DNA from: Lingula anatina | Lineage: Eukaryota > Animalia > Brachiopoda | Assembly: GCA_051362555.1 (NCBI GenBank) | Contig: CM120646.1 | Span: 1,364,001-1,428,000, forward strand | Reading direction: 5' to 3' | Length of the DNA: 64,000 nt | In this document: positions 30,917-52,569 of the stretch, piece by piece | How the letters are laid out: each line of letters opens with the position of its first letter | Position numbering within the stretch: position 1 is the first letter of the stretch | The notes under the pieces: model-generated | What the model was told of the DNA's origin: nothing | Database searches by the model: none | What the model saw: the letters and a program-made list of their open reading frames with translations, nothing else | Program-made: the position numbers and the translations under genes

Positions 30917-33148
30917 CTATGGAGCAGTAGTGCGTGCAGTCATTATACATTGTGCAAGTAGGCTTGTGCCCCTCCTACTGAGGTGAAAACCATCTTCCCT
31001 GTAGTAATCTGGGGAGTTTATTACCTCATTTACTGCGATGAAATGTGCTTTCTGATGGCCTGTGAGTTCAGCCTCAACAGTGTCATTGTACCGCTTTGCT
31101 CTCTCGTTAAAACTTTGATTCTGTTGACGATCCAGGATCCCCGTGAAATATATTTCACAGTCTGGATATTTCGTTTCTGTTGTCTGTCGCAGCTGGCGCA
31201 ACTCTTTGGCGGCGTCCTTAACACTTTGGTGATCAATGCTAATTGTCCCCACTATAAAAGTCAAAGATTCTGGATTTCCCAGGTTTGATTTGATTATATA
31301 GTCATGTGCGTCTGTAATAGTTTTTTCTATCAGTACTTTCACGTAGGATCTGCCCATCCTGTTGCCATCAAGGTACTTTCCTATTGAGTCAGTCACTATA
31401 ACATGCTTTCTTTGTATTGTGTTTTCTGCATTGTTTGTTGTTTGGGGACTGTCCACCTTACTTCTCGCTGCCGTCCCACGCTGGTCATTGCAAACTGAGT
31501 GAGTTGTCCGTTTTGATTTTTCTTCAACTTTATCTTTCAAGGTGATTTTTAACAACCCCTTTCCAAATTCCTTTGTTAGTTTAAAGCAACTGTCGACTGT
31601 TCCTACTATTGCCCCCAAGACACTGTCCGAGTCATTTTCTGACGAGTCGATCAGTATCTCTTTCACGGCTCTAAGCAAACCTCCTGCGCCTTTATCCTCT
31701 GGTGATCCTGCGCGCAAGTCAAACACCCAACCAAAGCAAAACGTTGCTTGGATTTCGTGGAGGATTGTTTTTGGATTGTGACGGATTTCATGTAAAATGT
31801 AAACGTTTTCACTTACTAATTGTTGATCCATGTAATCTATCATGTTGTTTTTCGGTATGAAATAATTGGGGATGCACTTCTTGGATAGAAATCTAAGCAA
31901 GAGATCGAGAAAGTCGTAAAAACGTTGTCCCATTTTTTCATCTGTCCACCTTTCCTGTGGAATGCGCTCACATAGCCAAAATAACGTTGTCTTAAGGTGG
32001 TAAGTAGAAAGGACGCCGAGGTCTCCCAGTCGGTGTTTGTGTATCAGTTTTATAATACGGTAAACATGGCGCTGAGCTTGATTTAACGACAAGGCAAGAT
32101 AGCGCTCAGCTAAAGCAAAAGAGATCCTCCATTCAGTTCGGCATTCTCTGTCACCAGGATTGGCAACTGGAACAAGATGGCAGCCAAATTCTCTCACGGC
32201 TTTGATTTGCTCCATATTAGGCCAACCACTCAATCTCTCACGACTAAGCCAATCAGCTGCTTCATGGGGAAATTTCTTCCAAGGAAACGAAAAAACAAAA
32301 TCCATTCTTATTAAAGCGTGGCCTTTGCGACCACAAGGAATGGAGACTTTTATTGATTCGGCAGGACCTTTATAACTTAAATTTAACATTTTCCGCAATA
32401 TATCCTGGATTTCAAACCCTGGCTTCGGGGTTGGGACGTAACTTTGCCTGATTTTGTTGCTCAGATATACATCCCCAGTTTGATCACGTTCCAAAATGCC
32501 TGACACACTAAGCCGATGCTGTTTTCCCTGGAACTTAAGTTTGACATAACCGGGATGACAGCCATGACCATCCACGAGCAACACTGCCCCTGTTGTTGTC
32601 ACTTGCTCTCTACCTGACATGACTGTGGGAAAAAATGGCGGCCTCAACTCTATCATCACATCCGTATCTTGCATTTCATGGTAAGCTTTATCCCCCCGCT
32701 TATACATAGGTTCGATCCCAAGGCCGTCACAAGAGCTACCCAGACAAAAGATCCCTAAGTTCTCTGCAAAAGAATTCCCAAATATCTTTTTTAATCCATA
32801 GCCCAACGTTTGTTCCATATGTGCAAAATTACTATACCAATTGTCTGTAAATAGCAAATTAACAAAATATTTTCCCATAAATGCAAGTAGTCCATTTTCT
32901 GATGTTTTATCTCCACCAATGGACCTGATAAATGCATCCTTGAGAATTTTATACATCTCTTCTGTTTTCTTATCATTCAGACCTAAATCAATCCCAAAAC
33001 CATTTTCAATTAATTTCAGCCCAATCATATTTTCCTGAGGTAGCATCTCTGCTAAGTATTTTGAGAATTTTTCCATATCTTCAGTATTTTCAACGTTTCG
33101 TCTCGGTCGTCGTTCACACGGAGGATATCTAAAATTGAAGGTAAACAT
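30917..33148 (-). CDS. Mab-21/cGAS-like nucleotidyltransferase (cGLR)-SGNH fusion, copy B (743 aa)
   Basis: Paralog of copy A. CLGSSCDG, QDTDVMI, MDFV, GCHLVPV, EWRISFALAER, LSTYHLKTTLFWLCE; SGNH VIVTDSIG, VGTISI, DGFHLS. Same candidate acceptor (33129) and internal ATG (33076). Confidence 0.9.
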   Translation of the reverse strand: MFTFNFRYPPCERRPRRNVENTEDMEKFSKYLAEMLPQENMIGLKLIENGFGIDLGLNDKKTEEMYKILKDAFIRSIGGDKTSENGLLAFMGKYFVNLLFTDNWYSNFAHMEQTLGYGLKKIFGNSFAENLGIFCLGSSCDGLGIEPMYKRGDKAYHEMQDTDVMIELRPPFFPTVMSGREQVTTTGAVLLVDGHGCHPGYVKLKFQGKQHRLSVSGILERDQTGDVYLSNKIRQSYVPTPKPGFEIQDILRKMLNLSYKGPAESIKVSIPCGRKGHALIRMDFVFSFPWKKFPHEAADWLSRERLSGWPNMEQIKAVREFGCHLVPVANPGDRECRTEWRISFALAERYLALSLNQAQRHVYRIIKLIHKHRLGDLGVLSTYHLKTTLFWLCERIPQERWTDEKMGQRFYDFLDLLLRFLSKKCIPNYFIPKNNMIDYMDQQLVSENVYILHEIRHNPKTILHEIQATFCFGWVFDLRAGSPEDKGAGGLLRAVKEILIDSSENDSDSVLGAIVGTVDSCFKLTKEFGKGLLKITLKDKVEEKSKRTTHSVCNDQRGTAARSKVDSPQTTNNAENTIQRKHVIVTDSIGKYLDGNRMGRSYVKVLIEKTITDAHDYIIKSNLGNPESLTFIVGTISIDHQSVKDAAKELRQLRQTTETKYPDCEIYFTGILDRQQNQSFNERAKRYNDTVEAELTGHQKAHFIAVNEVINSPDYYREDGFHLSRRGTSLLAQCIMTARTTAP

Positions 33149-36681: not shown

Positions 36682-37162
36682 GTGTTACGGTGGGTCATTT
36701 GCAATTTAGGTCATAAAGATAATGCACTAACTCTTTATGTCAATGATTTATGGTGAATATGATATTGGTATATAATTTCCACAACATCTGTCTTCTCTTC
36801 TAGCAGGTTCATCCAAAGATATGTTCTGAGAAAAAAAACAAAAAAAAACAAAAAAAAAAACATTTTAACCATTTTGCAGAAACGGGCTTTGATACACATT
36901 TCACTTATTTTTGATAATACAATGAGAAACATATTTGATAAGGCCAAATATTACTTTGAAATCACCTACGTGATAATAAGATGAATTTACCATGTTATGA
37001 CTTAAACATAATAAAGGAGTTGTGCATATGTAACCATTATTATTAATGCTATGGTATTTATAATCATGAGCCCCTTGGTGTCTCCTGCTTTTTGTACTGT
37101 CCGTACCCACCTATCTGTTTTTTTAGGAATCACAGCATAGTCTGTCTGTCCGTACCCCCAAG

Positions 37163-37301
37163 AGTAGTAAGAGGGCACTTTGGCGTAACAAAGGAAATGA
37201 CGTTAAATGACGTAAAACCCATTGTTTTAATGACGTAACAGGACAAAGAAAAATTATAGCGTACAATGGGACATGACGTAACAAGTAAACAAATATGTTT
37301 A
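37163..37301 (+). repeat. Left terminal inverted repeat (139 bp)
   Basis: Exact reverse complement of 52093-52231 by eye; begins AGTAGT; contains several TGACGT(A/T)A motifs. Confidence 0.97.
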
Positions 37302-37573
37302 TGTTTGTATTGCCATGGTAACGGAATTTTGTTGTGACAAAATGATGATGTCGCTGGACACGTCTGGACATGTGGGACGTTTGTTTATGTTTTGCTATGA
37401 CGTCACAGGGCAAGTCTGATCATGTTAATTTCAATTCTTTAATGCATATTTATTAATAGATACAAAATAAAGTAAAGCAAAACAACATAGAATTGTATAC
37501 ATAATTTTTATTGAAATAAACACACACACACACACAATATGTACAATAATACTACAAATTATCTAAAAATTTC

Positions 37574-38371
37574 TTAATAACCATATGGTAATGTGTTAAT
37601 TCCGTCTGGCATTATTGCTCTCTTTGTATAGACCATTCTGTAGGTCTTTTCTTCTAATTTTGAAGTGAGTTCTTTTGTAGCAACGTTACGCCTAATATTG
37701 TGATTGGTCACAGTGACTTTCTCTGGACCTTCTTTGTGTATCATTTTCTTTAATGTTTCAAAATTTACTATTTGTGATGTGGTATAATTAAGACTGATAC
37801 CACGCACTTTGCAAATAGTTTTGCCATTGAAAGTCTGGTAGGCATAATTTTTTGGACCCCCAGACACGTACGTTGTGATGTAATCACCGTCTTCAAGCTC
37901 GTCTGTGTAATCGCCTAAATGTGTGCCCATAATAGAATTTAGATAATTTTTGGTTTCGTCACTGCCGTCGTCAATGAAAATGATACTATCAGTATCAAAA
38001 TACAAAATATTTTCACCAAAAAATTCTAAAGATTCGTATAATTTGAGCCTAGCGTGTGCGGTGGTGTAAGCCGCAATCACAACGTTCGTGTTATCGGAGG
38101 ATATTTCGGCGGGATTTGTTCGATGATAACGTATTTCGGCGACGTCATCGTTTAAGAACATAATGTTGCTCACTTCGAGTTTCTTATCAAGTAGAATTTC
38201 GAAATACTCGTCGACATCGCCCACGTATTCTGTTTTGTCCATGTTTGTCTTCTGACCAAATTTACCTGAAATATAGAAGAAGAAAAAAATAAGTAAATTG
38301 TAATAATCATGACGCATCATAAAACAAAATCACAATACGCTAGTGTGAGCCTCTTGTGTATGTGTGTGTGC

Positions 38372-38408
<37 letters not shown>

Positions 38409-41400
38409 TATGACAGAATGACTTACCCCAGAAGCTGTTCAGCATGAGTTTGGCCAGTGCTCGCAGACCAGGATTTTTCTCAATTTTCTCAGGGTCCATT
38501 TGAATACCCTCGTGCATGGCATAGTCGTCAATGTATTGTTGTTTCTGCTCGTCTGTCTTACACCAAGAAGGGTAACCTGATGCTTGTTGTTTTACTTTCA
38601 GGAACGTGTTGATATATTCTGCAAAAAGACCACCTGTAACGATAGAAAATGAATAATGAGATACAAAATATAAACATTTTGTCAGCTCATGGGGAACCAG
38701 CAAACAAAAATTTTACATCATTATAATTATTGAACAGCGCAAGGAGAGGCATTGAAAAAAATTTACTGATGTCATAATTAAAGAACAGGACAAGGTGCCC
38801 AGATTAAAAATGACAGATAGTCGCAAGAAGATTCTTACCTGTTCTCGTCCCTGCGTCATAGCGGCTAACGGTGTCATAATGCCAGACTTCGTGGAAGGTG
38901 ATGATACGATACCCCTTAGCGACTGCTTTTTTAAGTTCAGCAGTAACCCATGCACCCGTGAGAATTCTTTCCTCATCGGTGTGTTCGCATTGTGATTGTT
39001 GCATACTTTCAACGCAAGTTTTGCACAAGGGGAATGTTAATTTGCCATTACTTCTGTAGGGCAATACGGGGTGAAACAATCCGCGAGGGGGTAACACACT
39101 GACCTTGGCTATCCCTTCATATTGATCAAGACCTACAAAATTGTCTGTGATAACATGGGGGTGATGGACGGGGTACGAACACATTTTGTTGGTCCACGGA
39201 TACAAACTTGTTATATCTATGTACCGAATTTTCTGGGCACCCTCTGCCGTGCAAAACAAACGCGCCGCATTTGTTCTCCCGCCATAAAACGCTTCCCTGG
39301 GATTTAATGGGTCTACAATGTCCAGGGAATCTACGAAAGTTTTCATTTCTGAATTTTCTTTTAGATTTCTCTCAAACTCGCATTCCCATATCTCTTCGTA
39401 CTGTAACCCTCGAGATTCTATATAGTGTCTAGCATTCATTGTTTTTTCAAACAAATTACCCATGGTCATGTTACGCACACTGTTCATGTTCCAGGGATCG
39501 TAACAATCGCGACAACCGTGCCAGTAACAGCCGTGAAACTGAAAGACTTTATTTAGGGTGGGGCAAAAACCATCCACCCTATAATTGCCGAATTTTCTTT
39601 CACCGCCATTCCGTGCGTGTTCTAAATGAATGTCACGGCTATGAGCAATGTATGCTAACCATCTTATGGCTTTTGCAGAGGTAGTGTGTCTAGGATTGTA
39701 CCCACCCTTTGGCATAATGCCGATTGTTTTGTGAGGGAGAAACAGGGTGCGATACACAACATTACAAGCACTTGCAATGGTTATTGCTGATCGAAACACT
39801 TCTATTTGCTGACCCTTTTCGCCCGTGATCTCTAAAAACAGTTGTCTGAATTTCAAGCAAGATCTGCGTAGAATGTCGACGTCCATTCTGCAATACTTAA
39901 CAATTTCAGACTGAAAATCAAAGACATAATTCTGTTTTACGAGATCGTCGTACCACTTAAAGAAGTCGGACCGTGCATTATCGGTCATGGACTCCACCCC
40001 GTAATAGTTTGAAGGGGGTAAAGCACCGATGTAATTTTGATTGTCAGGCGTGTTAAACAAGTGTGGAAAGTAACCTTTGCTTAACCCTTTGTCCAATGCA
40101 AAAGCCGACGGTAATTTGCTCAAAGCCATGGGAAGGAAATTGTAACTGTCAATGATTTTAATGTCTCCAATTTCGATAGAAATGCATTTAGCACCTCTAA
40201 GTATAACTTTTGGCAGTAGACCCTGATTCTTTAAATATTGTAAAATGTAATACGAATCGTAACCGCTAGCATAATGGGCAAGAGCAATACAACCGCAGGA
40301 AATATTCTCAAGTTCGTCTTCGACAGGGTCTTCGTCATCGATATAATTTTCGCCTTGCAAAGCGTGTAGACGTTCTTTTTCTTTTCTTGTGACGATACGT
40401 TTTTGTTTGCGCCTGTTTACAATTTCTTGCCCTTGTCCTTCAAATAGCCAAAAACAAAATTCGTCTCGCGCGTTTGCCCCACTAAAAATCCTTTCATTTT
40501 TGCCACACACGATACATTCGCTTGTGGGCGTGACCTCTTTATCGATGCAATGCCTACACACCTTGTGTGCGACCACTAAATTTGCCTTATGATCGCCATT
40601 CTCTTTTTGCATTGCTTCGAAATCAAAGAAAACGTAGGGCATGTCTTTTTCGACTTTTCTCTTTTTCTTTTTAGAGGTGCTAGATTCACCTTGTGCAGGA
40701 CCACTTTTACTTTGCAAGGGTTGCATGTAGCACAAGTGTCCTTGTTTAACACGTGCTTTGCACGTAGTGCAGTTATACGTGAAGCAAATGTGATCTTTTT
40801 CTTTCGTTTTAACCACAAATTTGCTGCACTTCTTGCAAGTAAAAAAAGTGTTGCAGGTTGACTTCCCATTCTCCACATGTTTATGATATTCAAAACATGC
40901 GCGGGAGAGAAAAGCCCTGTTGCAGTCTTCACACCGCGTCCAATTTTCAAAAACACACTCGGTGCCCTTTCTGCAGTACCTGCATTTGTTTGCACAAAGA
41001 TGATCGGTTACCATATTGTACCCTACGTTACAAGAGGCGCAATAATACGAACGCGACATGAAACCTTTGACAGAAGTGATCACGTCGTAGTGTCCGTTAT
41101 GATGAAAAAGGTTAAGCTGTTGTAGTCGCGTGGGGCCTTTGTGTATAATAGAATTAAAATGATCGCCAGAAAAAACGATAATTTGAAAGTCACGCAAATG
41201 ATCTTGGAATTTTTTAATTTCCTCCAATCCGCATGGACCTTCAGGTACACCGGCTGCCGCGTGAAGAGCCATTGCTCTTTCTAATTGAATCGTGCAACGA
41301 GGGTCGGCGATCTCTTTGTAATTTGGCAAGTGATCAGCCCTCGCTATAGCAACGACTAATGCCCTAGCTAGGCAGAGTTCATCGCTATTACGAATAGTTA

Positions 41401-41992
41401 CGACAGATTTCTTATTTTTCAGGAAAGATTGCACCCCCATAGAACCTCTACGTCTGTGACCGAGGCCTGGCTGTGGCATAGCTACGTGACATATAGTTAA
41501 TATCACTTTGCTGTCTAACCTGAAATCTTCGTGACTTTGCAACACACGCATCAGTATAGACAAAAATAGGTCTGCGGATAATTCTGACACGCGAACAAAG
41601 GGTATGGACACAGGGTGTTCTAAAGTGTCACTCTGAAGGACTACTCTGATTAAATCGTAACCCTGAAATCCAGTTGTTATTTCTGAGAAAATACTGTCAA
41701 AAACAGCACGTACTAATGGCACTGCAAAAGTAACGGGCACCCTATCTAGGCGATTGAACCCTAAACGATAGTCACGGCAAGTGGTGCGGAATTTTTGAAC
41801 GTAACGTTCGCCTATGCTATTCAACACATAGTAATCTCGAGGGTTAAAGTGTTCCCTCTCTATTGCATCGACGCGTGACAAAAAATCAGCGTCGTACTCG
41901 TCCTCCCTTCCCCATAAATGGGCTAAAGAATTGTTTCCCTCGTCTTCCTGTCCATCACCCCCTTGTAAATAGGAATCGTTTCTTTCAGTCAT
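37574..41992 (-). CDS. Protein-primed family B DNA polymerase, 3 exons (41992-38839, 38633-38427, 38265-37574), ~1350 aa
   Basis: Exo FFDFE, AHYASGYD, YCRMDV; Pol A YIDITSLYP, Pol B KLMLNSFW|GKFGQ (restored only by splicing), Pol C YFDTDS. OTU-like DELCLARA...GHYD, Cys-rich fingers, Vsr-like RVDGF...FHGCYWHGC, NLS-like KKKKRKV. Both introns GT-AG, phase 1. Confidence 0.95.
38266..38426 (-). other. Spliceosomal intron 2 of pPolB (161 bp)
   Basis: TGG G|GTAAGT ... polypyrimidine TTTCAG|GT AAA TTT GGT CAG; contains a (CT)n(CA)n microsatellite. Confidence 0.93.
38634..38838 (-). other. Spliceosomal intron 1 of pPolB (205 bp)
   Basis: ACA G|GTAAGA ... TTTTCTATCGTTACAG|GT GGT CTT. Joins YDAGTRT to GGLFAEYINTFLKVKQQASG; in-frame stop at 38804 if unspliced. 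Confidence 0.92.
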
Positions 41993-42121
41993 CGTCAACG
42001 CAATGAAATATGAAACCGACCCTACTAACTTGTAAAAATTCTACTACTGCAATCTCAACTAAAGCAACGAGTAATCAATGAAAAGATTGCACAGACAAAT
42101 TGAGTTTTTCGTGCGCGCTCA

Positions 42122-42439
42122 CTAGAAATGTCCACAAAAACAATCTTCTCTAATGTCTGCTAAATTATCTAATACGAGATCCAATAAAAGCACCCCGTGA
42201 TCGGCTATTAGCTCTTTTTTTTCTTCTTTCGGAAGATAGGAAAATGTCCTTTCAATGTAGCGAACAACTTTATCTAAAAGGTAATGGTCTCGGAGTTGAC
42301 TAGCTATGTTGATAAGGTCTGATAAATTGTAATTTTCAATTATATGTGTCTGATTTACAATGGCTTTTGATGCTAACAAACTTAGAGATCTGGGGTTATT
42401 ACGACGTCTTAACCAAACTGTATAATAGTTATCTCCCAT
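42122..42439 (-). CDS. Maverick accessory protein, 105 aa, with N-terminal BC-box/SOCS-box-like motif
   Basis: ATG-initiated ORF immediately upstream of pPolB. PRSLSLLASKAIV fits the [STP]Lxxx[CSA]xxx[ILV] consensus. Confidence 0.6.
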   Translation of the reverse strand: MGDNYYTVWLRRRNNPRSLSLLASKAIVNQTHIIENYNLSDLINIASQLRDHYLLDKVVRYIERTFSYLPKEEKKELIADHGVLLLDLVLDNLADIREDCFCGHF

Positions 42440-42672
42440 AACTAGAACTACTGACGTACAAAAATATGCAACATAATACTGAAGTTAAAGGCAAGTCGCA
42501 TTAGGGGGGGTATCGTAAACGAAATATCTCTGCAACGTTCCCACTGGAAATTAAGAAATTAAAAATGAAAATAAGTTCTAACCCACTTAATGAATCTAAT
42601 AAAAAATTTATAAAACGAAAAGTGAAAATGATAGTAATAACATTACGAATGATTATTTACCTTATCGTAGAA

Positions 42673-42796
42673 TCTTGAGCAGCCACTGAATTCTTGATCA
42701 AAGTCGCAGCAGAGCCTTCATATGCTTTCTCTATCTTATTGCAGTCTTGAGCAGCCACTGAAGTCTTGATCAAAGTCGCAGCAGAGCCTTCATATG
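42673..42796. repeat. Direct repeat, 72-bp period x2
   Basis: tcttgagcagccactgaa(t/g)tcttgatcaaagtcgcagcagagccttcatatg at 42673 and 42745. Confidence 0.9.
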
Positions 42797-42909
42797 TTCT
42801 CTCTCTCTCTCGCTGATTTCAAATTTGTTAAAATGTCGAAGGAATGGTCAAATTTATAGAGAACGTATCCTTTATAAATTTGAAATGACCAATTGCAGTT
42901 CACTTTCCA

Positions 42910-43340
42910 TGATCGTCGGCCAATTAAAAAAGTTGTTTATTTCTATCGACCAATAAAATTTAAAAATCGTAGATGTAAATTTCAAAATTGTGTTTATTAG
43001 CTACGTATATGTGTTTATATGGTCGCTATGATCATCAGTTTAAAAACGTTATATTTTTGTCGACCAATGAAATTTAAAGACCGTTGACGCATATTTCAAA
43101 ATCGTGTTTATTAGTTACGTATATGTTTTATTTGGTTACTATGATTATCATTTAAAATTTATTTATTTCTAACGATCAACGAAATTACATAAATCGTAGG
43201 CGTGGATTTTAAAATTTGTTAATTAATTACGTATATGTGTTTATATCAACCTCGACGCATCAGTTTAAAAATTATTTATTTTCATCGATCACCGAAATTT
43301 TAAAATTCGTAGGCAAGGATTTTATAACTTGTTTATTGAG
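42910..43340. repeat. Degenerate ~113-bp tandem repeat (~3.7 units) in the divergent intergenic region
   Basis: Anchor cga(c/t)ca at ~42946, 43060, 43172 and 43285; shared tacgtatatgt; CCAAT in the first units. Confidence 0.8.
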
Positions 43341-44180
43341 CTTGGTCTTCAGTAGTCAAATTCCATTTAAATTCCCTCTATAGACATCGTGCAGCATAAT
43401 TGCAGGGTAATTCAAAATCCATCGTTAGTAATATAATCATTTTATTTGCTCGAGACACATTATAAGGTGGATACGCACCATGTGTTATGTAAGCAAGGGG
43501 TAAGGGTGAAATATTTGAACATGTGTTGATAATACACTAGGCTTTCAAACGCTCTAATGCAAATAGCCGTTAACGCCTTTGGACAAACTGTACTTTCAAA
43601 AGAGTAATAAACCGGGCGCATCAAAGGCAAAATCAGTCGCAGATGTCAATCCTATCCACGGTCCTAATGAGTTTCCCGTCACACTGACAGTGCAGTGCAA
43701 AGATAATCCTCCTAACTATCAACAAAAGTCATGGTTGTAAATTTTATAACAGTTTCCCTATTTTACAAGATACAATCCTCATTTTCACTCTAGCTTTCAT
43801 CGTAATCACATGCAAAATGTTTCCCCTGTTTGTACTGCTCACACTTTTCAGCACTGCGTTTGCTGACTGTATGACAGAAATTCCTGATTATATCGTCAGA
43901 TGTACAGGAGAGATCGAAAACGGCCAGACATATTATGGTAAGCAAAACTAACACTTTACGTGCTCTGTGGTAAAGCTTATTACACAACTCTATAGGTTTT
44001 AATGCACACGTTGGCAGCCATAGCGTTACAATCAAAACACTGCACTGTTTGCTGGGTCCATCATGTGCAATTAAGGGTTATATATTTAAGAAAGTTTACA
44101 TAGGTGTCGATGAATATCATCATGCATTAAGTTATAAAATAAACCCTTCAAGTAAGTACAGGTCAATTTAACAATTGGCA

Positions 44181-44843
44181 ATGTACGAGATACACCTAAA
44201 ACATCCTTTTACAGCTCTTATAGCCGGCCCAACTGGCTCCGGAAAGACGATGTGGGTTAAACGATTGTTAGCAAATACTGACACGTTAATATTTCCCTCG
44301 CCACAAAAGATAATGTACTGTTATGCAATTTGGCAGCCGATCTACGACGACATTCAGAGTGAACACCCTGACACAATAACTTTTTTTAAAGGTATTCCGA
44401 CAGACCTTAGTGACGAAGCCTTTTTTGATTCTCAATTGAATAATCTGATAATTCTCGATGATCTCTTTGCTGAATGCGGGGACGATCCCCTGATACGTGA
44501 CCTTTTCACAAAGGGGTCTCATCATCGTAACATAAGTGTAGTGCTGATTGTGCAAAATTTATTTCCCAAGGAAAAACATGCTCGAACTATATCGCTGAAC
44601 TGTCATTATTTGATCCTTTTTAAAAATCCTCGAGATTTGCTGCAAGTCAAAACGCTAGGAATGCAAATGTACCCCAATGACCTTAAGCCGTTTATAGATG
44701 TTTATAAAGACGCCACAGTCAATGCACATGGTTACTTACTGATAGACCTTCGTCAGAGCAGTTCGGACAACATTCGTCTGCGAACAAATATCTTTCCAGG
44801 AGAAACGCATTACGCATACACTCGCAGCTCTGATGTACCATGA
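44181..44843 (+). CDS. A32-like (FtsK-HerA) genome packaging ATPase
   Basis: Walker A GPTGSGKT, Walker B LIILDDL, KGSHHRNISV, FKNPRD, RLRTNIFP; first ATG at 44181. Confidence 0.95.
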   Translation: MYEIHLKHPFTALIAGPTGSGKTMWVKRLLANTDTLIFPSPQKIMYCYAIWQPIYDDIQSEHPDTITFFKGIPTDLSDEAFFDSQLNNLIILDDLFAECGDDPLIRDLFTKGSHHRNISVVLIVQNLFPKEKHARTISLNCHYLILFKNPRDLLQVKTLGMQMYPNDLKPFIDVYKDATVNAHGYLLIDLRQSSSDNIRLRTNIFPGETHYAYTRSSDVP

Positions 44844-45160
44844 AAGCCGGGTCTGAGAAATTGTATAACGCTCACGTAAAATTGCTTTTAATTGCCGACA
44901 AGAAACTTATAAAAGCTATAATACAGAATTCTCACTACGACCTTGTTCGCATATTGTCTAATTACGCATCTAATCTACTGTATAATACGGATATTAACCT
45001 GACTTCGAAAGAAAAATTGTCATTGCGCAGAGTTAAACGCGTCATCAAACAATTGGCTTCTAAAGGAGTTTCCGTACATCATAAGAAAACATTATTGTTA
45101 CAAAACATTCCTGCGGTGAAGGCTATTGTCACATCTATAACGCGAAATGTCGGTCTTTAA
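44840..45160 (+). CDS. Small basic Polinton protein of unknown function (106 aa)
   Basis: ATGA overlap with the ATPase stop; helical Lys/Leu-rich pattern like the ORF typically following the ATPase in these elements. Confidence 0.7.
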   Translation: MKAGSEKLYNAHVKLLLIADKKLIKAIIQNSHYDLVRILSNYASNLLYNTDINLTSKEKLSLRRVKRVIKQLASKGVSVHHKKTLLLQNIPAVKAIVTSITRNVGL

Positions 45161-45860
45161 GAAAATGGTATTAATTAACGAGGGCGAACTAAATGCATTA
45201 AAACAGAGAGTTAGTAATAATTATTCCCCCCTATTGGAAGAAACTGTACGCCTAGAAAATGAAATGACAAAGACTATGCAAAGGACTGATATACCTTTTG
45301 ATGAAAAAATGAAGCGGTACAACGAATTACAAGTCCAGTACTTGAAAGTCGCACGAAAGAAAGAGCCGGTTGCAGTTGTTGTGCAAAATACGTCACAACC
45401 CTCGGAAGCACATCTTGGAGCTGACACCACTGTCGCAACCGTTACACCTGACGTCAAGTCAGAGCCTGCTTCTGTAACATCGCATCTTCATGACGAGATT
45501 TTGGATTCAATTCCACAGCGTATGCGACGGAAGGCTAGTGTTATTTTGAGATACATGTCCAATCGTCCTAATGTGTTGTCATATAATGATCAGGGTGAAA
45601 TAAAATTCGAAGGAAATGTCATTCGAGGAACAAATATAATAGATTTATTCCACGATCTTTATGTACCGCGCAAGAAATACAAACCTCAAGGACTAAACAC
45701 CTTTTTACAGGGTTTAAAAAGTCTAAATATACCGCTGAGTAACATCTCAAATGTAACGAGACGCAAACAAATGATGGCGGGGGAGACTTCTTCAAGCCCT
45801 ACCCAGCGAGGCACGGGACATGCGGTCAAGTCCAAATTGTCTTTATTTAACATCTATTAA
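45147..45860 (+). CDS. Conserved Polinton protein (PZ-like), 237 aa
   Basis: KKMVLI...LENEM...KMKRYNELQVQYL and YNDQGEI...GTNIIDL...PQG...F...NIP motifs recalled from Maverick ORFs; AATAAA follows at ~45914. Confidence 0.7.
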   Translation: MSVFKKMVLINEGELNALKQRVSNNYSPLLEETVRLENEMTKTMQRTDIPFDEKMKRYNELQVQYLKVARKKEPVAVVVQNTSQPSEAHLGADTTVATVTPDVKSEPASVTSHLHDEILDSIPQRMRRKASVILRYMSNRPNVLSYNDQGEIKFEGNVIRGTNIIDLFHDLYVPRKKYKPQGLNTFLQGLKSLNIPLSNISNVTRRKQMMAGETSSSPTQRGTGHAVKSKLSLFNIY

Positions 45861-45924
45861 AAAGTTTAGAACGCAAAATATATTGTCACAAAGCTTTATT
45901 TTTATTTCAGTCGAATAAATGTGT

Positions 45925-46452
45925 TTAATACAACAATCCTAGTGTTTTCCTTGATCTACACACCTGAAAATTCGTATTTACAAGATCGGATATGATGAAA
46001 TGTGCGTGAACGTAATCATACACTAATATATCGTTAAACTGTTTATCGTTCGTAAATATGCTAAGAACTTGGTCTAGCTTTTGCCCTCTAGATCGGTTTG
46101 ACAAGTAATATATACAATACTGCCCACACACTTTGGTATATACGCTCTGTAATGCTTTGGTATTACAGGTCCACGCAGAGGTAGAGTTATCGTCCAAAAA
46201 ACGTTTGAATTTGTCGTTATAATGATACGGTGTCTTAGCATAGGAGTCGAAAAATTCTCCCGCTCCATATTGGTCAAAGTAAAAAGCGACCCAGTGCGCT
46301 CCAGGTTTGTCGTGTGGATCCGTATTAGCTACGACGCATGCAGGATACGTCCATATCTTGACGGGTAACATATCTGACGCAAACACTCCTTTAAAACAAG
46401 CGCTTGTAATAGGGTCACCCTTAAGAATGCACTCAATTTGTTTCGTGTTCAT
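45925..46452 (-). CDS. Adenain-like cysteine protease (capsid maturation)
   Basis: NTDPHDKPGAHWVA (His), FFDSY (Asp), LQ...CGQYC (Gln/Cys); ATG at 46452 just after the MCP stop. Confidence 0.93.
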   Translation of the reverse strand: MNTKQIECILKGDPITSACFKGVFASDMLPVKIWTYPACVVANTDPHDKPGAHWVAFYFDQYGAGEFFDSYAKTPYHYNDKFKRFLDDNSTSAWTCNTKALQSVYTKVCGQYCIYYLSNRSRGQKLDQVLSIFTNDKQFNDILVYDYVHAHFIISDLVNTNFQVCRSRKTLGLLY

Positions 46453-46454
46453 CT

Positions 46455-47777
46455 TCAATATTCCACGTATACGCTGCGACGTTGGTCAATTTTTATAACG
46501 GAATCGAATTCGGCCATTACAATCAACACGCTGTTGTCTACAGCTTGTCCAAACTCGAGTAAAATGTTTAACGAACCCTGCTTTGTTGGTGATACATAAT
46601 TGTCGAAATTCTCGTCGGAGGTCAAGTCGAAACCAAACAACATAAAACCGTTAAGATACTCAGCTCTGTCAATGTCGTTATCTTGCTCCGAATTTACAGC
46701 GCCGACTGCCGACAAAAGGTCATAGTACGCTCTTATATAGTTTAACCCTCCGTTAACAGTAAAATCTAAATTGTAAGGTTTAAAAGGTATTTGTTCCCCC
46801 GCCACCAGTAATCGCAGCTGCCTTAAGAAATTATGTTTAAAATTAAACGGATTCTTTTCAAAATTTCCGGAAAATGCATCATCATCAACCATTGCGATAA
46901 TGATTCGTTTAGGCATAGTGCCTATGTAAACGTTATCCAGGTTTACATTTCTAACTCCGTTGGGTAGGTTGATAACTTTCACTTCCCTTCTAGTCATAGG
47001 ATAACAAGCTAAATGTTTCGCTAATATGTTTTCGTGAGCCAGTTTCAGACGGTCAGAAACTTTGACCCTCCTTACAAAAAGAGATATATTTTTTATCAGA
47101 AATTTTTCGTCTTTTGTCGCCGTATCGGACATCAAACAAAATGCATGGGATGTTCTTCTCAGTTTAATTCGTACGTCAACGTTGTTCAAAAGTAGTTTAT
47201 CTTGGTTTGCCAAATCGATTTTTAACGCCCCGTACATCTCCACCGTTCTACTTCTCTGGAACCAGGAACTGCGTGCTTGTAATCCCTCATTGCCAGGGTC
47301 TCCGTCAATATCCGTATCGTCCATCTGACCAAAAGTGTCCCTATACCACATTTCACTTGTCATCCACGTTTCTTTAGCATTTTTCCCACGATACAATAAA
47401 TTTTCCAGGTACGCACGATAGGCATACGTGTTTTGACCTAGGGTTATCAAATGATCATTCAGCTCCACGTCCACTGCTGCAAATAAGGAGTGAAGCGTAT
47501 TGTTCACGACTGCCGTGTCTTGCCCTGGATCGAGGTCGGATCCATCAGCCTTGACGATTTTACCCTCCACATATAAATTTATTTTTGTTGTATCGATGTA
47601 TTCGTCGGGAGTGCCTTTAATGACAAATTCTATCACAGGGCTCACGTCTGATAAAGAGGAGACAGGGCGTATCTCCTCCATATTACTAGACAAAATTTCC
47701 GTTTGAAAATGTTGACGGGCATTGCTAAATAAATCAAGCTCCGATTTTACGATTGTGTCGTTCGCGGGGTCAATCAT
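46455..47777 (-). CDS. Major capsid protein (double jelly-roll, PY), 440 aa
   Basis: KSELDLF, YAYRAYLENLL, QDKLLLNNVDVRIKL, PKRIII, NPFNFKH, FGFDLT; size and position typical. Confidence 0.92.
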   Translation of the reverse strand: MIDPANDTIVKSELDLFSNARQHFQTEILSSNMEEIRPVSSLSDVSPVIEFVIKGTPDEYIDTTKINLYVEGKIVKADGSDLDPGQDTAVVNNTLHSLFAAVDVELNDHLITLGQNTYAYRAYLENLLYRGKNAKETWMTSEMWYRDTFGQMDDTDIDGDPGNEGLQARSSWFQRSRTVEMYGALKIDLANQDKLLLNNVDVRIKLRRTSHAFCLMSDTATKDEKFLIKNISLFVRRVKVSDRLKLAHENILAKHLACYPMTRREVKVINLPNGVRNVNLDNVYIGTMPKRIIIAMVDDDAFSGNFEKNPFNFKHNFLRQLRLLVAGEQIPFKPYNLDFTVNGGLNYIRAYYDLLSAVGAVNSEQDNDIDRAEYLNGFMLFGFDLTSDENFDNYVSPTKQGSLNILLEFGQAVDNSVLIVMAEFDSVIKIDQRRSVYVEY

Positions 47778-47779
47778 GT

Positions 47780-48142
47780 CTAAAAATTTGTATCTCGTGC
47801 CTTGTACGAACGTGTCCGCTTTGTCTTCTTAATATTTGTACTTCTGGCTACTTTCGGAGTGTTGTGCCTTTTTATAGTCATGGAGTTTAATGTTTTTCTT
47901 ATGACGTCACCATTAACATACAATTCTGGTTTCGAGGCAGGTCGCTTTTTAGCCTTTGTTTTTGAAGGGGGGTGCTCAGTGTGCTTCGACTTTGTTAGTC
48001 TATTTACATGCAGTACTTCTGCGTGTCGAGGTTGCACCAATCGTCCCCCTCTCTGTAATCGAGCTCCTCGGTATTTACTTATCGAACCCCCACCTGTCTG
48101 CGCCTCGTATCTTTTCACAAGCGCTTCATACACAGGGTCCAT
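47780..48142 (-). CDS. PW-like basic core protein, 120 aa
   Basis: Lies between mCP and MCP. YEAQTGGG...YRG...QRGG resembles protease cleavage motifs; Lys/Arg-rich tail. Confidence 0.75.
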   Translation of the reverse strand: MDPVYEALVKRYEAQTGGGSISKYRGARLQRGGRLVQPRHAEVLHVNRLTKSKHTEHPPSKTKAKKRPASKPELYVNGDVIRKTLNSMTIKRHNTPKVARSTNIKKTKRTRSYKARDTNF

Positions 48143-48144
48143 TG

Positions 48145-48876
48145 TTATAATAAATTCTTTCTGCGAAAATGAAGTGTTGCTATCGCTTTCCCACTATCAA
48201 ACTGTACTAACTCACCCGTGTCACGACTTATATCTATTCGAATTGTATCGATTTGACGACAATTCAGAGGGACGTATATGGGATTGTCAAATGTTTTTGT
48301 GACTATCTGTCCGTAGTCCCCATTAATATTGACGATCCTCAGTAAATTTGCGGAAGCGTCACCAACCATCTGATTTTGAATAACATCTGTATACACGTAA
48401 AGAGAATTGAACCCTAGTGTCATATTAGGAGGAAAGGGAGCTATCGTATCTGAATTAAGTCTAGTGTTAGAATTAAATCCAAGCAATTTCGCCATGTCTC
48501 CCGCAACATCAATATATGCTCCAGATTTCAAGTGAACTGTCACTCGTCTGCTGATAATGTTATAGCCTAAAGTGATGTTTGTTTTCCCGATAACTGTCAG
48601 CTGGTTGTGAATTTCTGTTATTAGATCATTAATTGTCGGATAGTATCCTGCAGAAATTCTCATTGTGTTCGATTTTAGACCGTCGTAATAACCGAGTGAA
48701 CTATCCTGTACGTTATTCCACGAATATGGGTACTGCAGTTCGATCAATGCTACTTCATAATCACCTTCTAGATTTAACGACGACGACAATTTTGTTTGAA
48801 AAGACTCGGGTCTATTGTTGGGGAAATACTTGAAGCTGCTGTTGGATGGTAAGATAACATGAAAAGACGACGCCAT
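48145..48876 (-). CDS. Minor capsid protein (penton, PX)
   Basis: FHVILPSNSS..YFPNN, YEVALIEL, LYVYTDVI..QMVGD..ANLLRIV, TLHFRR; first ATG at 48876. Confidence 0.9.
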   Translation of the reverse strand: MASSFHVILPSNSSFKYFPNNRPESFQTKLSSSLNLEGDYEVALIELQYPYSWNNVQDSSLGYYDGLKSNTMRISAGYYPTINDLITEIHNQLTVIGKTNITLGYNIISRRVTVHLKSGAYIDVAGDMAKLLGFNSNTRLNSDTIAPFPPNMTLGFNSLYVYTDVIQNQMVGDASANLLRIVNINGDYGQIVTKTFDNPIYVPLNCRQIDTIRIDISRDTGELVQFDSGKAIATLHFRRKNLL

Positions 48877-48914
48877 GGTTTCAAATGATATGCACAACTG
48901 TTTACAGTTTGCTT

Positions 48915-50045
48915 TTATGCTTTTTTAATATCAGTAGATCGTACCCATGAATTAAAACGGTTAGAGTAGCCTGCCCATTTCACAAAATGCTGTCTTGAGA
49001 CACCTTTACCTCTAGATTTCAAAATTTTTTCTACGCGGTACACATCGTCCTTTTTAATAACCCTTGTCAATTCTGGTTCATAAAATACACCTTCAATTTG
49101 CTCTCCATTGTAATCCACCACCCTGTACACAGGGGGCTTTCTCTTCAGTTTTGCAGATATTGTGAATATTTCCTGTGTCCAACCCTGCTCGTATCCTTTC
49201 GCAAAAGGAGTGCGTGTTTTACTTAATCTTACGGTGTCGCCCACTTTAAATTTAAAGTTTGTCTTCCCATTCTTTACTTTCCCATACAAATTTTCCCATA
49301 CGGTATTTGCATTTCGTGGATTGACATTAACAGGTGCCATATTTATGCTGCGGTGTCTTGCATGGTTATATCCAGACAATAACTCATCCAGTACTGTCAC
49401 ATATGTTAACGTACTATTTGCTGTGAAATATCTGAACAAACGGGCCTTCAAAGTTCTAATAACACGCTCAACCACAGAGCTTTTTCTTTCCGATTTTGTT
49501 GTGAAAAAAGCTATGCCTTGGCTCTTGAGGTACGCCTGAAATTTCCTATTTGTGAATTCCGTCCCTGCATCTGTTTGAAGAACTAGTGGTTTTCTGCCTT
49601 CGGATACAATGTTTTTAAACGCATCTAATACATTATCAGCCGTTTTCGATTTGATGGGTACGGCCCACGCGAATTTTGAAAATATATCAATCACGGTTAG
49701 TAAGTATTTCATTCCTTTATTGTATTTTGCTAATTTGCTTACGTCAGCCAAATCTCCCTGCCACTGGTCATCGATATAATTGACCATCACACGATTTGTA
49801 CTGAAGTGTTTTCTAACAGGCGCATGCAATGTATACACATCTTGGCTGGCAAGGAAATCTTCTATTTCCCGTCGACTAATCTTCCTGCCGTCTTTTCTAA
49901 CCGCATTATACAATTTTAACACGCCTCCAAAACTAGCGGGATCTGACGGATTGGTATACAATCCATGCAAATATGTATTGTTTTTAATCGGTCCTTTCTT
50001 TTTCTTCATTAATTTTTTGGAATCGCGTAACCCTTTCTTATACAT
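48915..50045 (-). CDS. Retroviral-like DDE integrase with C-terminal chromodomain
   Basis: QWQGDL, IDIFSKFAW, QTDAGTEF, VVERVIRTLK; chromo-like YRVEKIL...VKWAGYSNRFNSWV; first ATG at 50045. Confidence 0.96.
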   Translation of the reverse strand: MYKKGLRDSKKLMKKKKGPIKNNTYLHGLYTNPSDPASFGGVLKLYNAVRKDGRKISRREIEDFLASQDVYTLHAPVRKHFSTNRVMVNYIDDQWQGDLADVSKLAKYNKGMKYLLTVIDIFSKFAWAVPIKSKTADNVLDAFKNIVSEGRKPLVLQTDAGTEFTNRKFQAYLKSQGIAFFTTKSERKSSVVERVIRTLKARLFRYFTANSTLTYVTVLDELLSGYNHARHRSINMAPVNVNPRNANTVWENLYGKVKNGKTNFKFKVGDTVRLSKTRTPFAKGYEQGWTQEIFTISAKLKRKPPVYRVVDYNGEQIEGVFYEPELTRVIKKDDVYRVEKILKSRGKGVSRQHFVKWAGYSNRFNSWVRSTDIKKA

Positions 50046-50083
50046 CCCTTGTCTCAATCGATAACTAAATGTTTTTTCGATTC

Positions 50084-50557
50084 CTACGGATACTTATAGT
50101 TGTCATCAACCTCATCGTAAGGGGTATTGAGTAGTGTCATCACGGTACTCGGGGTACGTACAGCGGGGGTTGTATGACCCACGACAAAATTATCAACGAA
50201 TTTAAGGCGTTTTTGCGGTGTAAGTGGAACGTTAAAACGATTATTCAGTCTCTTTTCGACGGTATTCATAGTGCAGTGAGGCGAGTGTCGTTCGTGTTCG
50301 ACATCTGCCGCATCTCTCAGTGGATCCCAATTCTTTAGGTTTAAATTACAATAAAAACAATGTACCATATCGTTATGTTTAGGCGTTCGAGGATCTCTGT
50401 AAAAGCCGCTAATGGCTAAGGGTATAGGATTGACCAGTAATTTGCAGGGCCAATTGAGAAAGCTCAGTATTCGATCTTCTTCATTTGCATAAGGCATGCT
50501 CGGCCCATTTAGCTTTTCCCCCACCCCTGCATCCGATTCTAGATGTCCATCATCCAT
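50084..50557 (-). CDS. Single-BIR-domain (IAP/survivin-like) accessory protein
   Basis: EEDRILSFLNWP, LAISGFY, DMVHCFYC...W...EHERHSPHC (CxxC..H..C zinc ligands); no RING; first ATG at 50557. Confidence 0.88.
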   Translation of the reverse strand: MDDGHLESDAGVGEKLNGPSMPYANEEDRILSFLNWPCKLLVNPIPLAISGFYRDPRTPKHNDMVHCFYCNLNLKNWDPLRDAADVEHERHSPHCTMNTVEKRLNNRFNVPLTPQKRLKFVDNFVVGHTTPAVRTPSTVMTLLNTPYDEVDDNYKYP

Positions 50558-50834
50558 ACCAGATAATGAAATAATATAAAAAAAAGTCTGCAATCACATT
50601 ATTTTATTTGCTCTTTTTATAGTTAATGTGTCCAATATTTCAACCAATCAAACTAGTTCTAATATTTTTATACAGTTATTTCAACCAATCAAACTTCTTC
50701 TTATTATATTTGATACAATTACTTTATCCAATCAAATGTCTTTTTCTGTTATACATATTTACATACATTGTCTTAATGCATTTCTTAATTTTCATTCACA
50801 TCCACAATGCCAATTGTCTTTTACTGTTCAGTGT

Positions 50835-51692
50835 TCATTGTGGGTTTCGTTTGACACAGACAGTCTCACACGCATCGTAAGCAAGTCTTGCGAGGATAGT
50901 GTCAGGGACTAACACATGGTTTGGATCTTCCACGTCTTTACGAAAATCTTCCAGCAACGCAGCGGTCATGATGATGGAAAGGATGTACGGGTTTTCTGGT
51001 TGATTCAATTTTTGCTTCACCAGTTTGTAGGCCTTCAGTATTTCCCCGTGGCTCACAGCAGCTTTTGCCCTGGTGAAGTAGATGTGCACCGAAACCGCCC
51101 AGTCTGCCATGCATCCATCCATATGATGCTTTTGGGATCCGTGATCGGCTATACATCCAGTGCAGAACCTTCCTCGCATGGCCAGTAATTCTTTCACAAT
51201 GAACTTCACGTAGATGAGACGAACTAACGCTACGTCTGCCTCTACGTCGTTCTCTGCCCCGAACATTTTATCGTCGCCCGTTTTGGACTCGGCACTGGTC
51301 GATGTCAGAGGGATTACGCCCAATGCCTCGTTTATTTCAGGTACTTTGGTCAGCAGTGCCTCCCATGTGCTTTTATCAAGTGTTACATCGTATATTGGAG
51401 CATAAGCCTGACTTACTGGTTGGTAAACTATCTTCAACAGCGATTCCTCCTTCTCGATGTCGTACATCACCCGGACGCCATGGTTTTCTCCCACCTGCTG
51501 GTCTATTTCAGTGTCCTCTGTCATAGCAGCTTGAACAACGGGGACAATCTGTTGGAAATCTTGCCATGCCTCTCTCAACAGCCGAATCTTGTTCATTGTA
51601 TTCAATTCGCTGAATACAATCAAAGCAACCCCTTGCTTGCTCTGACATACAGTGACCATGATATCATCACTGAGTTTGAAGAATCGAGACAT
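50835..51692 (-). CDS. Accessory protein with two PC4/Sub1-like repeats and a CxxC-H-H-C motif
   Basis: Two beta-rich units ending IRLLREAWQDF and VTLDKSTWEAL; CTGCIADHGSQKHHMDGC; first ATG at 51692. The PC4 fold call is by pattern only. Confidence 0.6.
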   Translation of the reverse strand: MSRFFKLSDDIMVTVCQSKQGVALIVFSELNTMNKIRLLREAWQDFQQIVPVVQAAMTEDTEIDQQVGENHGVRVMYDIEKEESLLKIVYQPVSQAYAPIYDVTLDKSTWEALLTKVPEINEALGVIPLTSTSAESKTGDDKMFGAENDVEADVALVRLIYVKFIVKELLAMRGRFCTGCIADHGSQKHHMDGCMADWAVSVHIYFTRAKAAVSHGEILKAYKLVKQKLNQPENPYILSIIMTAALLEDFRKDVEDPNHVLVPDTILARLAYDACETVCVKRNPQ

Positions 51693-51765
51693 TATGCTGG
51701 TGGAACGTACGTACACTTTATGTCAGGATTTATACTGATATAGTCAAATAGCTCTTTCTCTTCTG

Positions 51766-52092
51766 CTTTTATAGAATCTAGTGACGTCATCAAGTTACCA
51801 CGGCAAAACATAAACAATCAATAAACATGTCCATATACGTCATCAAATCGCCATAGCGACGCGTAAACATTCCATTGACGTCATCAAATTACCATGGCGA
51901 CCCGTAAACAGTCAGGAGACATGCCCAGACTCATCATCAAATCGCCATAGCGACGCGTAAACAATCCCGTGACGTCATCAAATTACCATGGCGACCCGTA
52001 AACAATCAAGAGACATGCCCAGACTCGTCACCAAATCGCCATAGCGACGCGTAAACAATCCAGTGACGTCATCAAATTACCATGGCTACACG
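51766..52092 (-). promoter_or_regulatory. Putative promoter: TATA box plus 94-bp tandem repeat with four CRE palindromes
   Basis: TATAAAAG on minus at 51773-51766; TGACGTCA at 51782, 51876, 51970 and 52064 (exact 94-bp spacing). Confidence 0.7.
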
Positions 52093-52231
52093 TAAACATA
52101 TTTGTTTACTTGTTACGTCATGTCCCATTGTACGCTATAATTTTTCTTTGTCCTGTTACGTCATTAAAACAATGGGTTTTACGTCATTTAACGTCATTTC
52201 CTTTGTTACGCCAAAGTGCCCTCTTACTACT
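52093..52231 (-). repeat. Right terminal inverted repeat (139 bp)
   Basis: Reverse complement of 37163-37301; ends ACTACT followed by TSD cccaag. Confidence 0.97.
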
Positions 52232-52569
52232 CCCAAGTTATACATTAACCATTGGATAACTGGCTAGTTATCAATAATGATAAAACATCGAAATATGGTA
52301 CAAAATATTGTTTTAGACTGAATAAAATGCATTCATGTCTTGCGATGTTTAAAAAAAAACAGTGTATTTAAATATATATTCGATAAAGTGATACTGATTA
52401 ATTAGAGTCAGGCAAGAGATTTTGCAAAGAAATAATATCAGTAAAGATGCTACTCTTTGCATTCAAAATGAACAATATTGGTTTGAATATATTGCCAAAT
52501 ATAGCTAATTGCAAAATAATAAACTGGCTATGGATTAATATTCTATGGATAAATATATTTACGAACCAA

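Follow-up and report, generated by a model that had tools for sequence, protein, structure and literature searches.

We describe a gene for a protein-primed DNA polymerase of family B (pPolB), carried by a complete Maverick of the brachiopod Lingula anatina, that is divided by two inserts which the host's major spliceosome likely removes as ordinary introns. The gene lies in a stretch of 64,000 nucleotides (assembly GCA_051362555.1, contig CM120646.1, positions 1,364,001 to 1,428,000 of the forward strand), hereafter the window, in which the Maverick occupies 15,069 bp (37163-52231), with terminal inverted repeats (TIRs), a 6-bp target-site duplication (TSD), and all core genes open. The second intron interrupts catalytic motif B. 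Polymerases of distant lineages carry inserts at the same motif, at several staggered positions, which likely reflects several separate gains at three or more positions. The main interest is this recurrent placement in a catalytic motif; the window is one clean, complete example and not the source of the pattern.

Two inserts in the polymerase gene

The gene is read from the minus strand, and its parts are as follows.

38839-41992, minus strand: pPolB exon 1, 3154 nt, with OTU-like, exonuclease, and Vsr-like regions and motif A (PF03175, E = 9.5e-28)
39515-39577, minus strand: Vsr-like endonuclease core (DG...FHGCYWHG), a motif match; the Pfam Vsr model reaches just E = 0.35
39197-39223, minus strand: polymerase motif A (YIDITSLYP), a motif match
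38634-38838, minus strand: intron 1, 205 nt, phase 1, with a branch-point-like CTGAC within its last 60 nt
38427-38633, minus strand: pPolB exon 2, 207 nt, phase 1 on both sides, ending in the first half of motif B
38266-38426, minus strand: intron 2, 161 nt, phase 1, in the glycine codon of motif B
37574-38265, minus strand: pPolB exon 3, 692 nt, with the second half of motif B, motif C, and the C-terminus
37985-38002, minus strand: polymerase motif C (YFDTDS), a motif match

The three pieces (41992-38839, 38633-38427, and 38265-37574) add up to 4053 nt and, once joined, give 1350 codons plus a stop, with both junctions in phase 1 and zero internal stops in any piece. This structure had been put forward in an original prediction made from the sequence alone, and it proved exact to the base. 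The exonuclease and polymerase A, B, and C motifs are all present, and motif B is whole only across intron 2. The inserts themselves (GTAAGA..TTACAG and GTAAGT..TTTCAG) contain stops in all three frames, and their GC contents are 32% and 35%, compared with 43%, 44%, and 37% in the exon pieces. Both sit in G/GT contexts (the slash marks the junction), and intron 2 contains a (CT)n/(CA)n run spanning roughly 38355-38413; the contexts, the microsatellite, and the position of intron 2 inside motif B were likewise found as predicted.

The splice signals are those of U2-type introns, with a GT donor consensus, a pyrimidine tract, and a YAG acceptor. Among the 885 minus-strand GT sites of the element, G/GTAAG occurs at 2, and these are the two donors. 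The acceptor of intron 2 shares the highest pyrimidine count among 378 YAG sites; that of intron 1 is not in the top 12 listed of these sites, and the branch-like motif present in intron 1 was not found in intron 2. Neither intron matched any other sequence in the window or in the related loci that we fetched, so no introner family is evident.

Comparison with homologues recovered the same structure. Spliced alignment to a profile of 43 uninterrupted homologues, with the predicted coordinates withheld, gave exactly the two introns and a frame free of stops and frameshifts, and the homologues ran continuously across both junctions, as the original prediction had implied. Removing the introns thus restores a frame that is colinear with homologues. 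When 120 homologues were searched by tblastn, those sufficiently long among the 45 shown gave three colinear blocks that abut in the query. At junction 2, exactly one residue separates W from KF in all 78 homologues that matched the pattern (of 120). At junction 1, the 14-residue spacing of the joined protein is found in 74 of the 120, a shorter loop of 6 residues in 28, and another arrangement in 1, with 17 unmatched.

Both inserts are also present in diverged copies that come from two further studies. The gene is present in ten DNA runs from four studies; the same listing showed no RNA run with it, which we take as evidence in neither direction. Contigs from X7 contain both introns and no joined form. 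Diverged copies from X10 have also kept both; within the introns, one deletion (7 nt) and one insertion (6 nt) have occurred. A 146-nt piece of X10, mostly intron 1, has 18 differences and a 595-nt piece, mostly exon 1, has 21, a loose comparison given that the pieces come from different contigs. Synonymous changes account for 24 of the 40 X10 differences shown (107 are listed), whereas they make up 21% of the single changes that are possible. The X7 differences are less clear: of 29 shown in pPolB, 11 are synonymous, 15 nonsynonymous, and 3 intronic.

If intron 1 were retained, reading from exon 1 would reach a stop at 38804 and yield a 1062-aa open reading frame (ORF) with the OTU-like, exonuclease, and Vsr-like regions and motif A, and without motifs B and C, as had been predicted. 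The stop lies 377 nt upstream of junction 2, and a stop placed before a junction in this manner is the typical layout for nonsense-mediated decay. As a separate observation, skipping of exon 2 would keep the frame and lose the first half of motif B.

Staggered introns at motif B in related polymerases

We fetched 102 related loci by their exon-3 peptides and not by intron state, the first fetch taking the best 80 of 450. At motif B, which 99 of these loci reach, ten have an insert, and the inserts fall at three positions inside 8 nt. The position seen in the window, phase 1 of the glycine codon, is shared by L012 (63 nt), L020 (66 nt), and L099 (62 nt, GC-AG). Phase 1 of the tryptophan codon is occupied in L001-L004 (89-90 nt) and, by a degenerate insert, in L024, while phase 2 of the serine codon is occupied in L007 (169 nt) and L098 (67 nt). 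In some relatives (L012 and L020) the insert is in frame (63-69 nt), and proteins P0172 and P0196 read through it without a stop. The site of intron 1, by comparison, holds no intron in any of the 96 related loci that cover it (96/96). Intron 1 thus appears private, a separate gain specific to this lineage in a G/GT context. The original prediction had proposed comparing intron positions across relatives; what it had missed is that distant lineages share the motif-B intron, which is one of several staggered positions.

Stored proteins tell a similar story. Some homologues terminate exactly at motif B. With exon 3 as query and a length filter that favors split genes, we obtained 120 short proteins; a foreign leader precedes GKF in 69, SFW in 7, and G-GKF in 1, and the remainder are uninterrupted (14) or begin at a downstream start (29). 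The end of the leader can be encoded as NYA, which corresponds to a YAG acceptor, in 68 of 69 cases compared with 181 of 417 leader positions further up, a count in which many rows are close kin and whose lone exception (P0177) proved to be uninterrupted. Of 150 cluster representatives that matched exon 2, 83 have no interruption; a further 38 fell into a donor-like bin, whose rough defining pattern also took in some frameshifted copies. Proteins end or diverge at LN-R (15), SF-C (4), and SFW-V (5). Such protein ends hint at two further positions, SFW-V (5 proteins) and W-Y (1), neither of which was seen in DNA. The donor patterns had 0 matches when searched in viral contigs. P0139, a gene call of prokaryotic style, stops just past LN-R and shows 100% identity over 150 aa with the Mytilus edulis model P0134, which crosses motif B; public Mytilus annotation therefore already splices the Ser-site intron, without comment.

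Some relatives have introns elsewhere in the gene. L099 (33-1170) contains four, located in motif A (Ser), motif B (the Gly site with GC-AG ends), alignment column 1193, and motif C (Ser). L088, L092, and L096 have three introns in common (columns 749, 1068, and 1129), all outside the catalytic motifs; their contigs were binned in a bacterial genome and are likely eukaryotic DNA. Intron calls in the variable loops of columns 487-825 were mostly in frame and lacked pyrimidine tracts, and we treated them as loops, except for the common column 749.

A large Gly-site family (P0199, P0204, P0215, P0219, P0226, P0256, P0338, and kin) gives tRNA-like peptides where the intron is read through. These peptides, found in 26 stored proteins, resemble what we take to be translated A and B boxes and a Tyr anticodon, and the intron of that family may contain a tRNA gene or tRNA-derived repeat. 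L103, the sole viral contig matching the tRNA-like leader pattern, was rejected after ARAGORN found no tRNA in it; ARAGORN also found none in the window or in 14 related loci.

Intron history on the tree

We placed these states on an unrooted tree of 209 rows built from 224 C-terminal columns, with a weak backbone. Rows sharing more than 80% identity within a state had been merged; short coverage ruled out three loci, and another seven were excluded beforehand. The intron state changes at least 12 times. Most scored rows are intronless (144 of 169, a count made before one row was corrected to intronless), and the intron-bearing lineages stand among intronless sisters at 76-86% identity, a placement that makes repeated gain likely. 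The Trp-site group is nested in an uninterrupted clade with 99-100% support and is 85% identical to L006. The Ser-site rows are scattered, and a single clade was rejected by the approximately unbiased test (p-AU = 5e-13 in the strict form; p = 0.011 with intronless sisters included), for a subset of 38 rows picked after the first tree had been seen. The row nearest to the window is a Lingula protein of unscored intron state at 62% identity, and the window's own Gly site may be inherited or parallel.

What may have placed introns in a catalytic motif

The introns are concentrated in catalytic motifs. Between columns 930 and 1388, 5 of the 10 distinct credible positions fall in motifs A, B, and C, which make up 23 of 458 columns (5%; p = 6.5e-5). 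Under a stricter count, in which motif B is entered once and the window-only site is dropped, 3 of 7 remain in motifs (p = 0.004). These tests omit weak calls at columns 1070, 1198, and 1336 and all calls upstream of column 930. Of the 458 columns, 148 reach 90% conservation or more; four intron positions nevertheless lie in the top 1% of local conservation, and three lie within four codons.

The explanation that we prefer, with a probability of roughly 0.45, is that the inserts are spliced and that those at motif B were gained independently as repair insertions at conserved DNA that is repeatedly broken. Host RNA polymerase II would transcribe the element in the nucleus, and full polymerase would be made only after splicing, in line with the dependence on host splicing in the original prediction. 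DNA encoding the catalytic motifs would be broken more often than the remainder of the gene. A candidate cutter is the Vsr-like nuclease carried by these polymerases; alternatively, breaks could arise when dissimilar elements recombine at the DNA that is most conserved in them. Other repair scars in a catalytic motif would presumably be lethal, so that only spliceable inserts would be kept. The kept inserts would be spliceable in their local AG/Y, T/GG, or G/GT context and would also disrupt the attacked sequence. Neither intron need act as a switch.

Several points count against this explanation. No break and no cutter has been observed. The Vsr-like motif is found in intron-bearing and intronless relatives alike and so is no guide to whether an intron is present; moreover, a nuclease acting on each motif B that lacks an intron would also cut the very element that encodes it. 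(An apparent lack of the nuclease in intron-bearing lineages, based on a strict Vsr pattern matching 6/20 versus 86/110, was discarded once variant spellings of the motif were found in both classes.) No intron was present at motif B in 89 of the 99 loci that reach it. We defined the motif windows and chose which introns to count as credible with the data in view, and the calls named above were omitted, all of which makes the clustering p values optimistic. A single origin of the Gly-site rows was not rejected (p-AU = 0.35), some proteins scored as uninterrupted could derive from spliced RNA, and change counts on an unrooted tree of 224 columns with a weak backbone cannot separate gain from loss. 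Finally, six of nine RNA runs carrying the same species label were mapped, and no spliced joint was listed in these six, in which the reads are too few: 32, 17, and 122 over 14.4 kb in three runs, and 6, 6, and 3 over 2 kb in the other three. Intron 1 was covered unspliced by two X12 and two X14 reads. One X13 read apparently ending near 38635, the place at which a spliced read would depart, was set aside, as its end was inferred from bin depths and the remainder was not shown.

A bolder version of repair-born introns assigns a purpose to the breaks. Mavericks might attack the polymerase catalytic motifs of rivals by means of the polymerase-fused Vsr-like nuclease, with introns selected as shields. 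We regard this version as decidedly doubtful. If true, it would be a eukaryotic, spliceosome-based counterpart of the conflict between phage introns and homing nucleases, and would provide an instance in which the cause of a de novo intron gain can be named and its position predicted.

Among the alternatives, the one that fares best is neutral gain, in which introns arise at proto-splice contexts anywhere during long residence in the host and biased survival or detection makes them seem to pile up in conserved motifs. In variable stretches, introns would be removed inexactly, become part of the reading frame, or escape notice in alignment. Every motif site offers an AG/Y or G-run context, half of the distinct positions (5 of 10, intron 1 of the window among them) lie outside motifs, and none of the three introns common to L088, L092, and L096 is in a motif. 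Dinoflagellate Maverick-like elements also appear to be colonized by introners mostly after integration, according to the available text of PMC11957031. The abundance of well-conserved columns, against which four intron positions still fall at the very top of local conservation and three within a few codons, is difficult to square with neutral gain, as is the lack of any match to the two introns elsewhere in the window or in the fetched loci. On balance, we consider it rather unlikely.

A second alternative, which we judge unlikely, holds that the Vsr-type pPolBs of animals inherited one old motif-B intron that slid a few bases along the G-rich Trp-Gly codons and was often lost by way of reverse-transcribed mRNA. 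The three DNA-confirmed positions do lie within 8 nt beside a G run, the lack of rejection of one Gly-site origin agrees with it, and L008 and P0076 are uninterrupted inside a large Gly-site clade, which resembles loss. The intronless majority, however, would require very many exact losses; the Ser-site rows do not group, a union of the Gly and Trp groups is weakly rejected (p = 0.041), and the introns of L099 in motifs A and C are left unexplained.

The original prediction had suggested that intron retention allows regulation. In its fullest form, this would be a switch like IVS3 of the P element, with splicing confined to the germline or induced and retention producing a dead or repressing polymerase. 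An intron in a catalytic motif would make retention fully inactivating, selection for such a switch could favor repeated retention at motif B, the few reads at intron 1 are unspliced, and the P-element precedent is established (PMC7776569). This suggestion did not hold up well. Both donors have the consensus G/GTAAG, and most relatives do without the motif-B intron. Intron 1, whose retention stop would be prone to decay, is absent from the 96 comparable loci. The product of retention varies by lineage between an immediate stop and an in-frame insert, and the in-frame inserts mean that relatives do not share a conserved truncated product. Among the sparse RNA reads in X12-X14 (37310-44029), including those unspliced, first-mate minus orientation prevails; for the majority of stranded library types, this denotes RNA antisense to pPolB, or DNA. 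We find a switch very unlikely, a judgment made on thin RNA data. That the inserts are unspliced and the polymerase dead, as the missing junction reads in six RNA runs would allow, is least credible of all and scarcely to be entertained: the frame is restored exactly twice at consensus signals with no other stop or frameshift, the TIRs and TSD are intact, diverged copies show a synonymous excess, and distant lineages share the position.

Relation to known systems

The publications cited here were available in part, except where the main text is named, and our statements apply to those parts. Maverick core genes are termed intronless in vertebrates (PMC8097293) and nematodes (10.1101/2022.07.12.499685). 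The Lingula element resembles these in its 15-kb size, its (AGT)2//(ACT)2 TIR ends, its 6-bp TSD, and its eight core genes in the orders ATPase-PM-PZ and INT-mCP-PW-MCP-PRO; it differs in the two introns of pPolB and in the orientation of that gene, which is encoded on the opposite strand from ATPase-PM-PZ. Vsr has been described in mollusc-type pPolB2 Polintons and in a marine nematode (10.1101/2023.08.22.554363), and the Vsr-like domain in the window, as in those elements, lies between the exonuclease and motif A; the available text mentions no spliceosomal pPolB intron. The closest named relatives of the window polymerase come from a brachiopod, octocorals, bivalves, and echinoderms.

Introners occur inside full-length dinoflagellate Maverick-like elements (PMC11957031), which thus also contain spliceosomal-type introns; there, multicopy introner families land anywhere, whereas the window has two unrelated single introns in an animal element, at positions recurring in a catalytic motif. 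In Daphnia pulex, parallel intron gains have been linked to staggered double-strand breaks (PMC4202315). Independent introns at the same or adjacent positions are common to both cases, but the Daphnia gains are in host genes of one species, while those considered here are in a mobile element, across phyla, and in a catalytic motif. The Vsr-fold EDxHD homing nuclease I-Bth0305I cuts a conserved phage gene beside an intron site (PMC3239194), which likewise pairs a Vsr-fold nuclease with an intron in a conserved DNA-metabolism gene. In that system, a self-splicing group I intron encodes the nuclease; in ours, the spliceosomal introns have no ORF and the putative nuclease is fused into the polymerase. 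Polinton pPolBs are said to carry homing-type domains (PMC11161782). In the Drosophila P element, too, a DNA transposon's key enzyme needs host splicing (PMC7776569), but retention has been proven there to be regulated and to yield a repressor product, both of which are hypothetical in the Lingula element.

We found no published account of spliceosomal introns in animal Maverick polymerases in the texts searched, which did not extend to supplements that may hold spliced models. The main text of a coral survey (PMC11131425) contains no "intron," "splic," or "exon," and no such intron is mentioned in the available text of PMC8502044, PMC11161782, 10.64898/2026.10.13.758929, PMC6431247, or PMC2836005.

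The origin and positional recurrence of new spliceosomal introns is a long-standing question. Here, staggered and apparently independent gains at one catalytic motif extend across animal lineages, and the closely related intronless sisters are natural controls, which makes the cause of gain testable. The 2007 Nematostella genome supplement reportedly mentions an intron in an anemone Polinton polymerase; if real, that would lower the novelty of a single intron and not that of staggered recurrence. There is also a practical consequence: a survey that works from ORFs and takes intronless genes as the mark of an intact Maverick would throw out entire lineages of intact elements as broken. Furthermore, if particles are formed, these elements would depend on the nucleus and on host splicing.

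The element and its neighborhood

Apart from pPolB, the element is a conventional Maverick/Polinton, with TIR ends, a 6-bp TSD, a protein-primed family B polymerase, an integrase, an ATPase, a protease, and a major capsid protein. Spliceosomal-type introns thus occupy an otherwise intact element, as had been predicted. Intronless core genes are a described trait of these elements and not part of the formal definition, and pPolB departs from it by its two introns. The original prediction had called all other genes intronless; this was borne out for core genes, to which we limit the statement, since the ATPase, PZ-like protein, protease, major capsid, minor-capsid-like protein, and integrase each align to relatives as one unbroken block. 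The remaining features are as follows.

37157-37162: left TSD, CCCAAG
37163-37304: left TIR, starting AGTAGT, about 142 nt with one mismatch
42122-42439, minus strand: 105-aa ORF, no family in a Pfam search
44181-44843, plus strand: packaging ATPase (Pox_A32, E = 1.6e-6)
44840-45160, plus strand: 106-aa ORF, putatively PM-like by position, with gene order as in the available text of PMC8097293
45147-45860, plus strand: 237-aa ORF, putatively PZ-like by gene order
45925-46452, minus strand: adenovirus-like cysteine protease (Peptidase_C5, E = 8.8e-4, under the curated cutoff; relatives match at E = 8e-34)
46455-47777, minus strand: double jelly-roll major capsid protein, 440 aa (predicted fold with pLDDT, the predicted local distance difference test, at 74.8; best Foldseek match, Sputnik capsid 3j26, E = 8.9e-16)
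47780-48142, minus strand: 120-aa basic ORF, putatively PW-like by gene order
48145-48876, minus strand: 243-aa ORF, putative minor capsid protein by position and conservation in relatives
48915-50045, minus strand: retroviral-type integrase with chromodomain (rve, E = 3.7e-15; Chromo, E = 5.5e-6)
50084-50557, minus strand: BIR (inhibitor of apoptosis) cargo gene adjoining the integrase (BIR, E = 2.6e-14)
50835-51692, minus strand: 285-aa accessory ORF, no family above cutoff in a Pfam search
52090-52231: right TIR, ending ACTACT, about 142 nt with one mismatch
52232-52237: right TSD, CCCAAG, equal to the left copy

The 243-aa ORF had no Pfam match above cutoff to a single jelly-roll minor capsid protein and is conserved at the place expected for one. 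Between pPolB and the ATPase, 1.7 kb (42440-44180) contain no ORF of 100 aa; short direct repeats lie at about 42690-42810 and 42930-43290, and this gap has no homology to the ORFs of related loci. A 94-nt tandem repeat is found inside the right end of the element (51770-52098), and a reverse-transcriptase fragment sits just beyond that end (52583-52963). On the other side, 4 kb from the element, the window contains two host genes, Mab-21/cGAS-like and carrying a GDSL-like domain at the C-terminus, that form an inverted pair (24233-26599, plus strand, and 30917-33148, minus strand).

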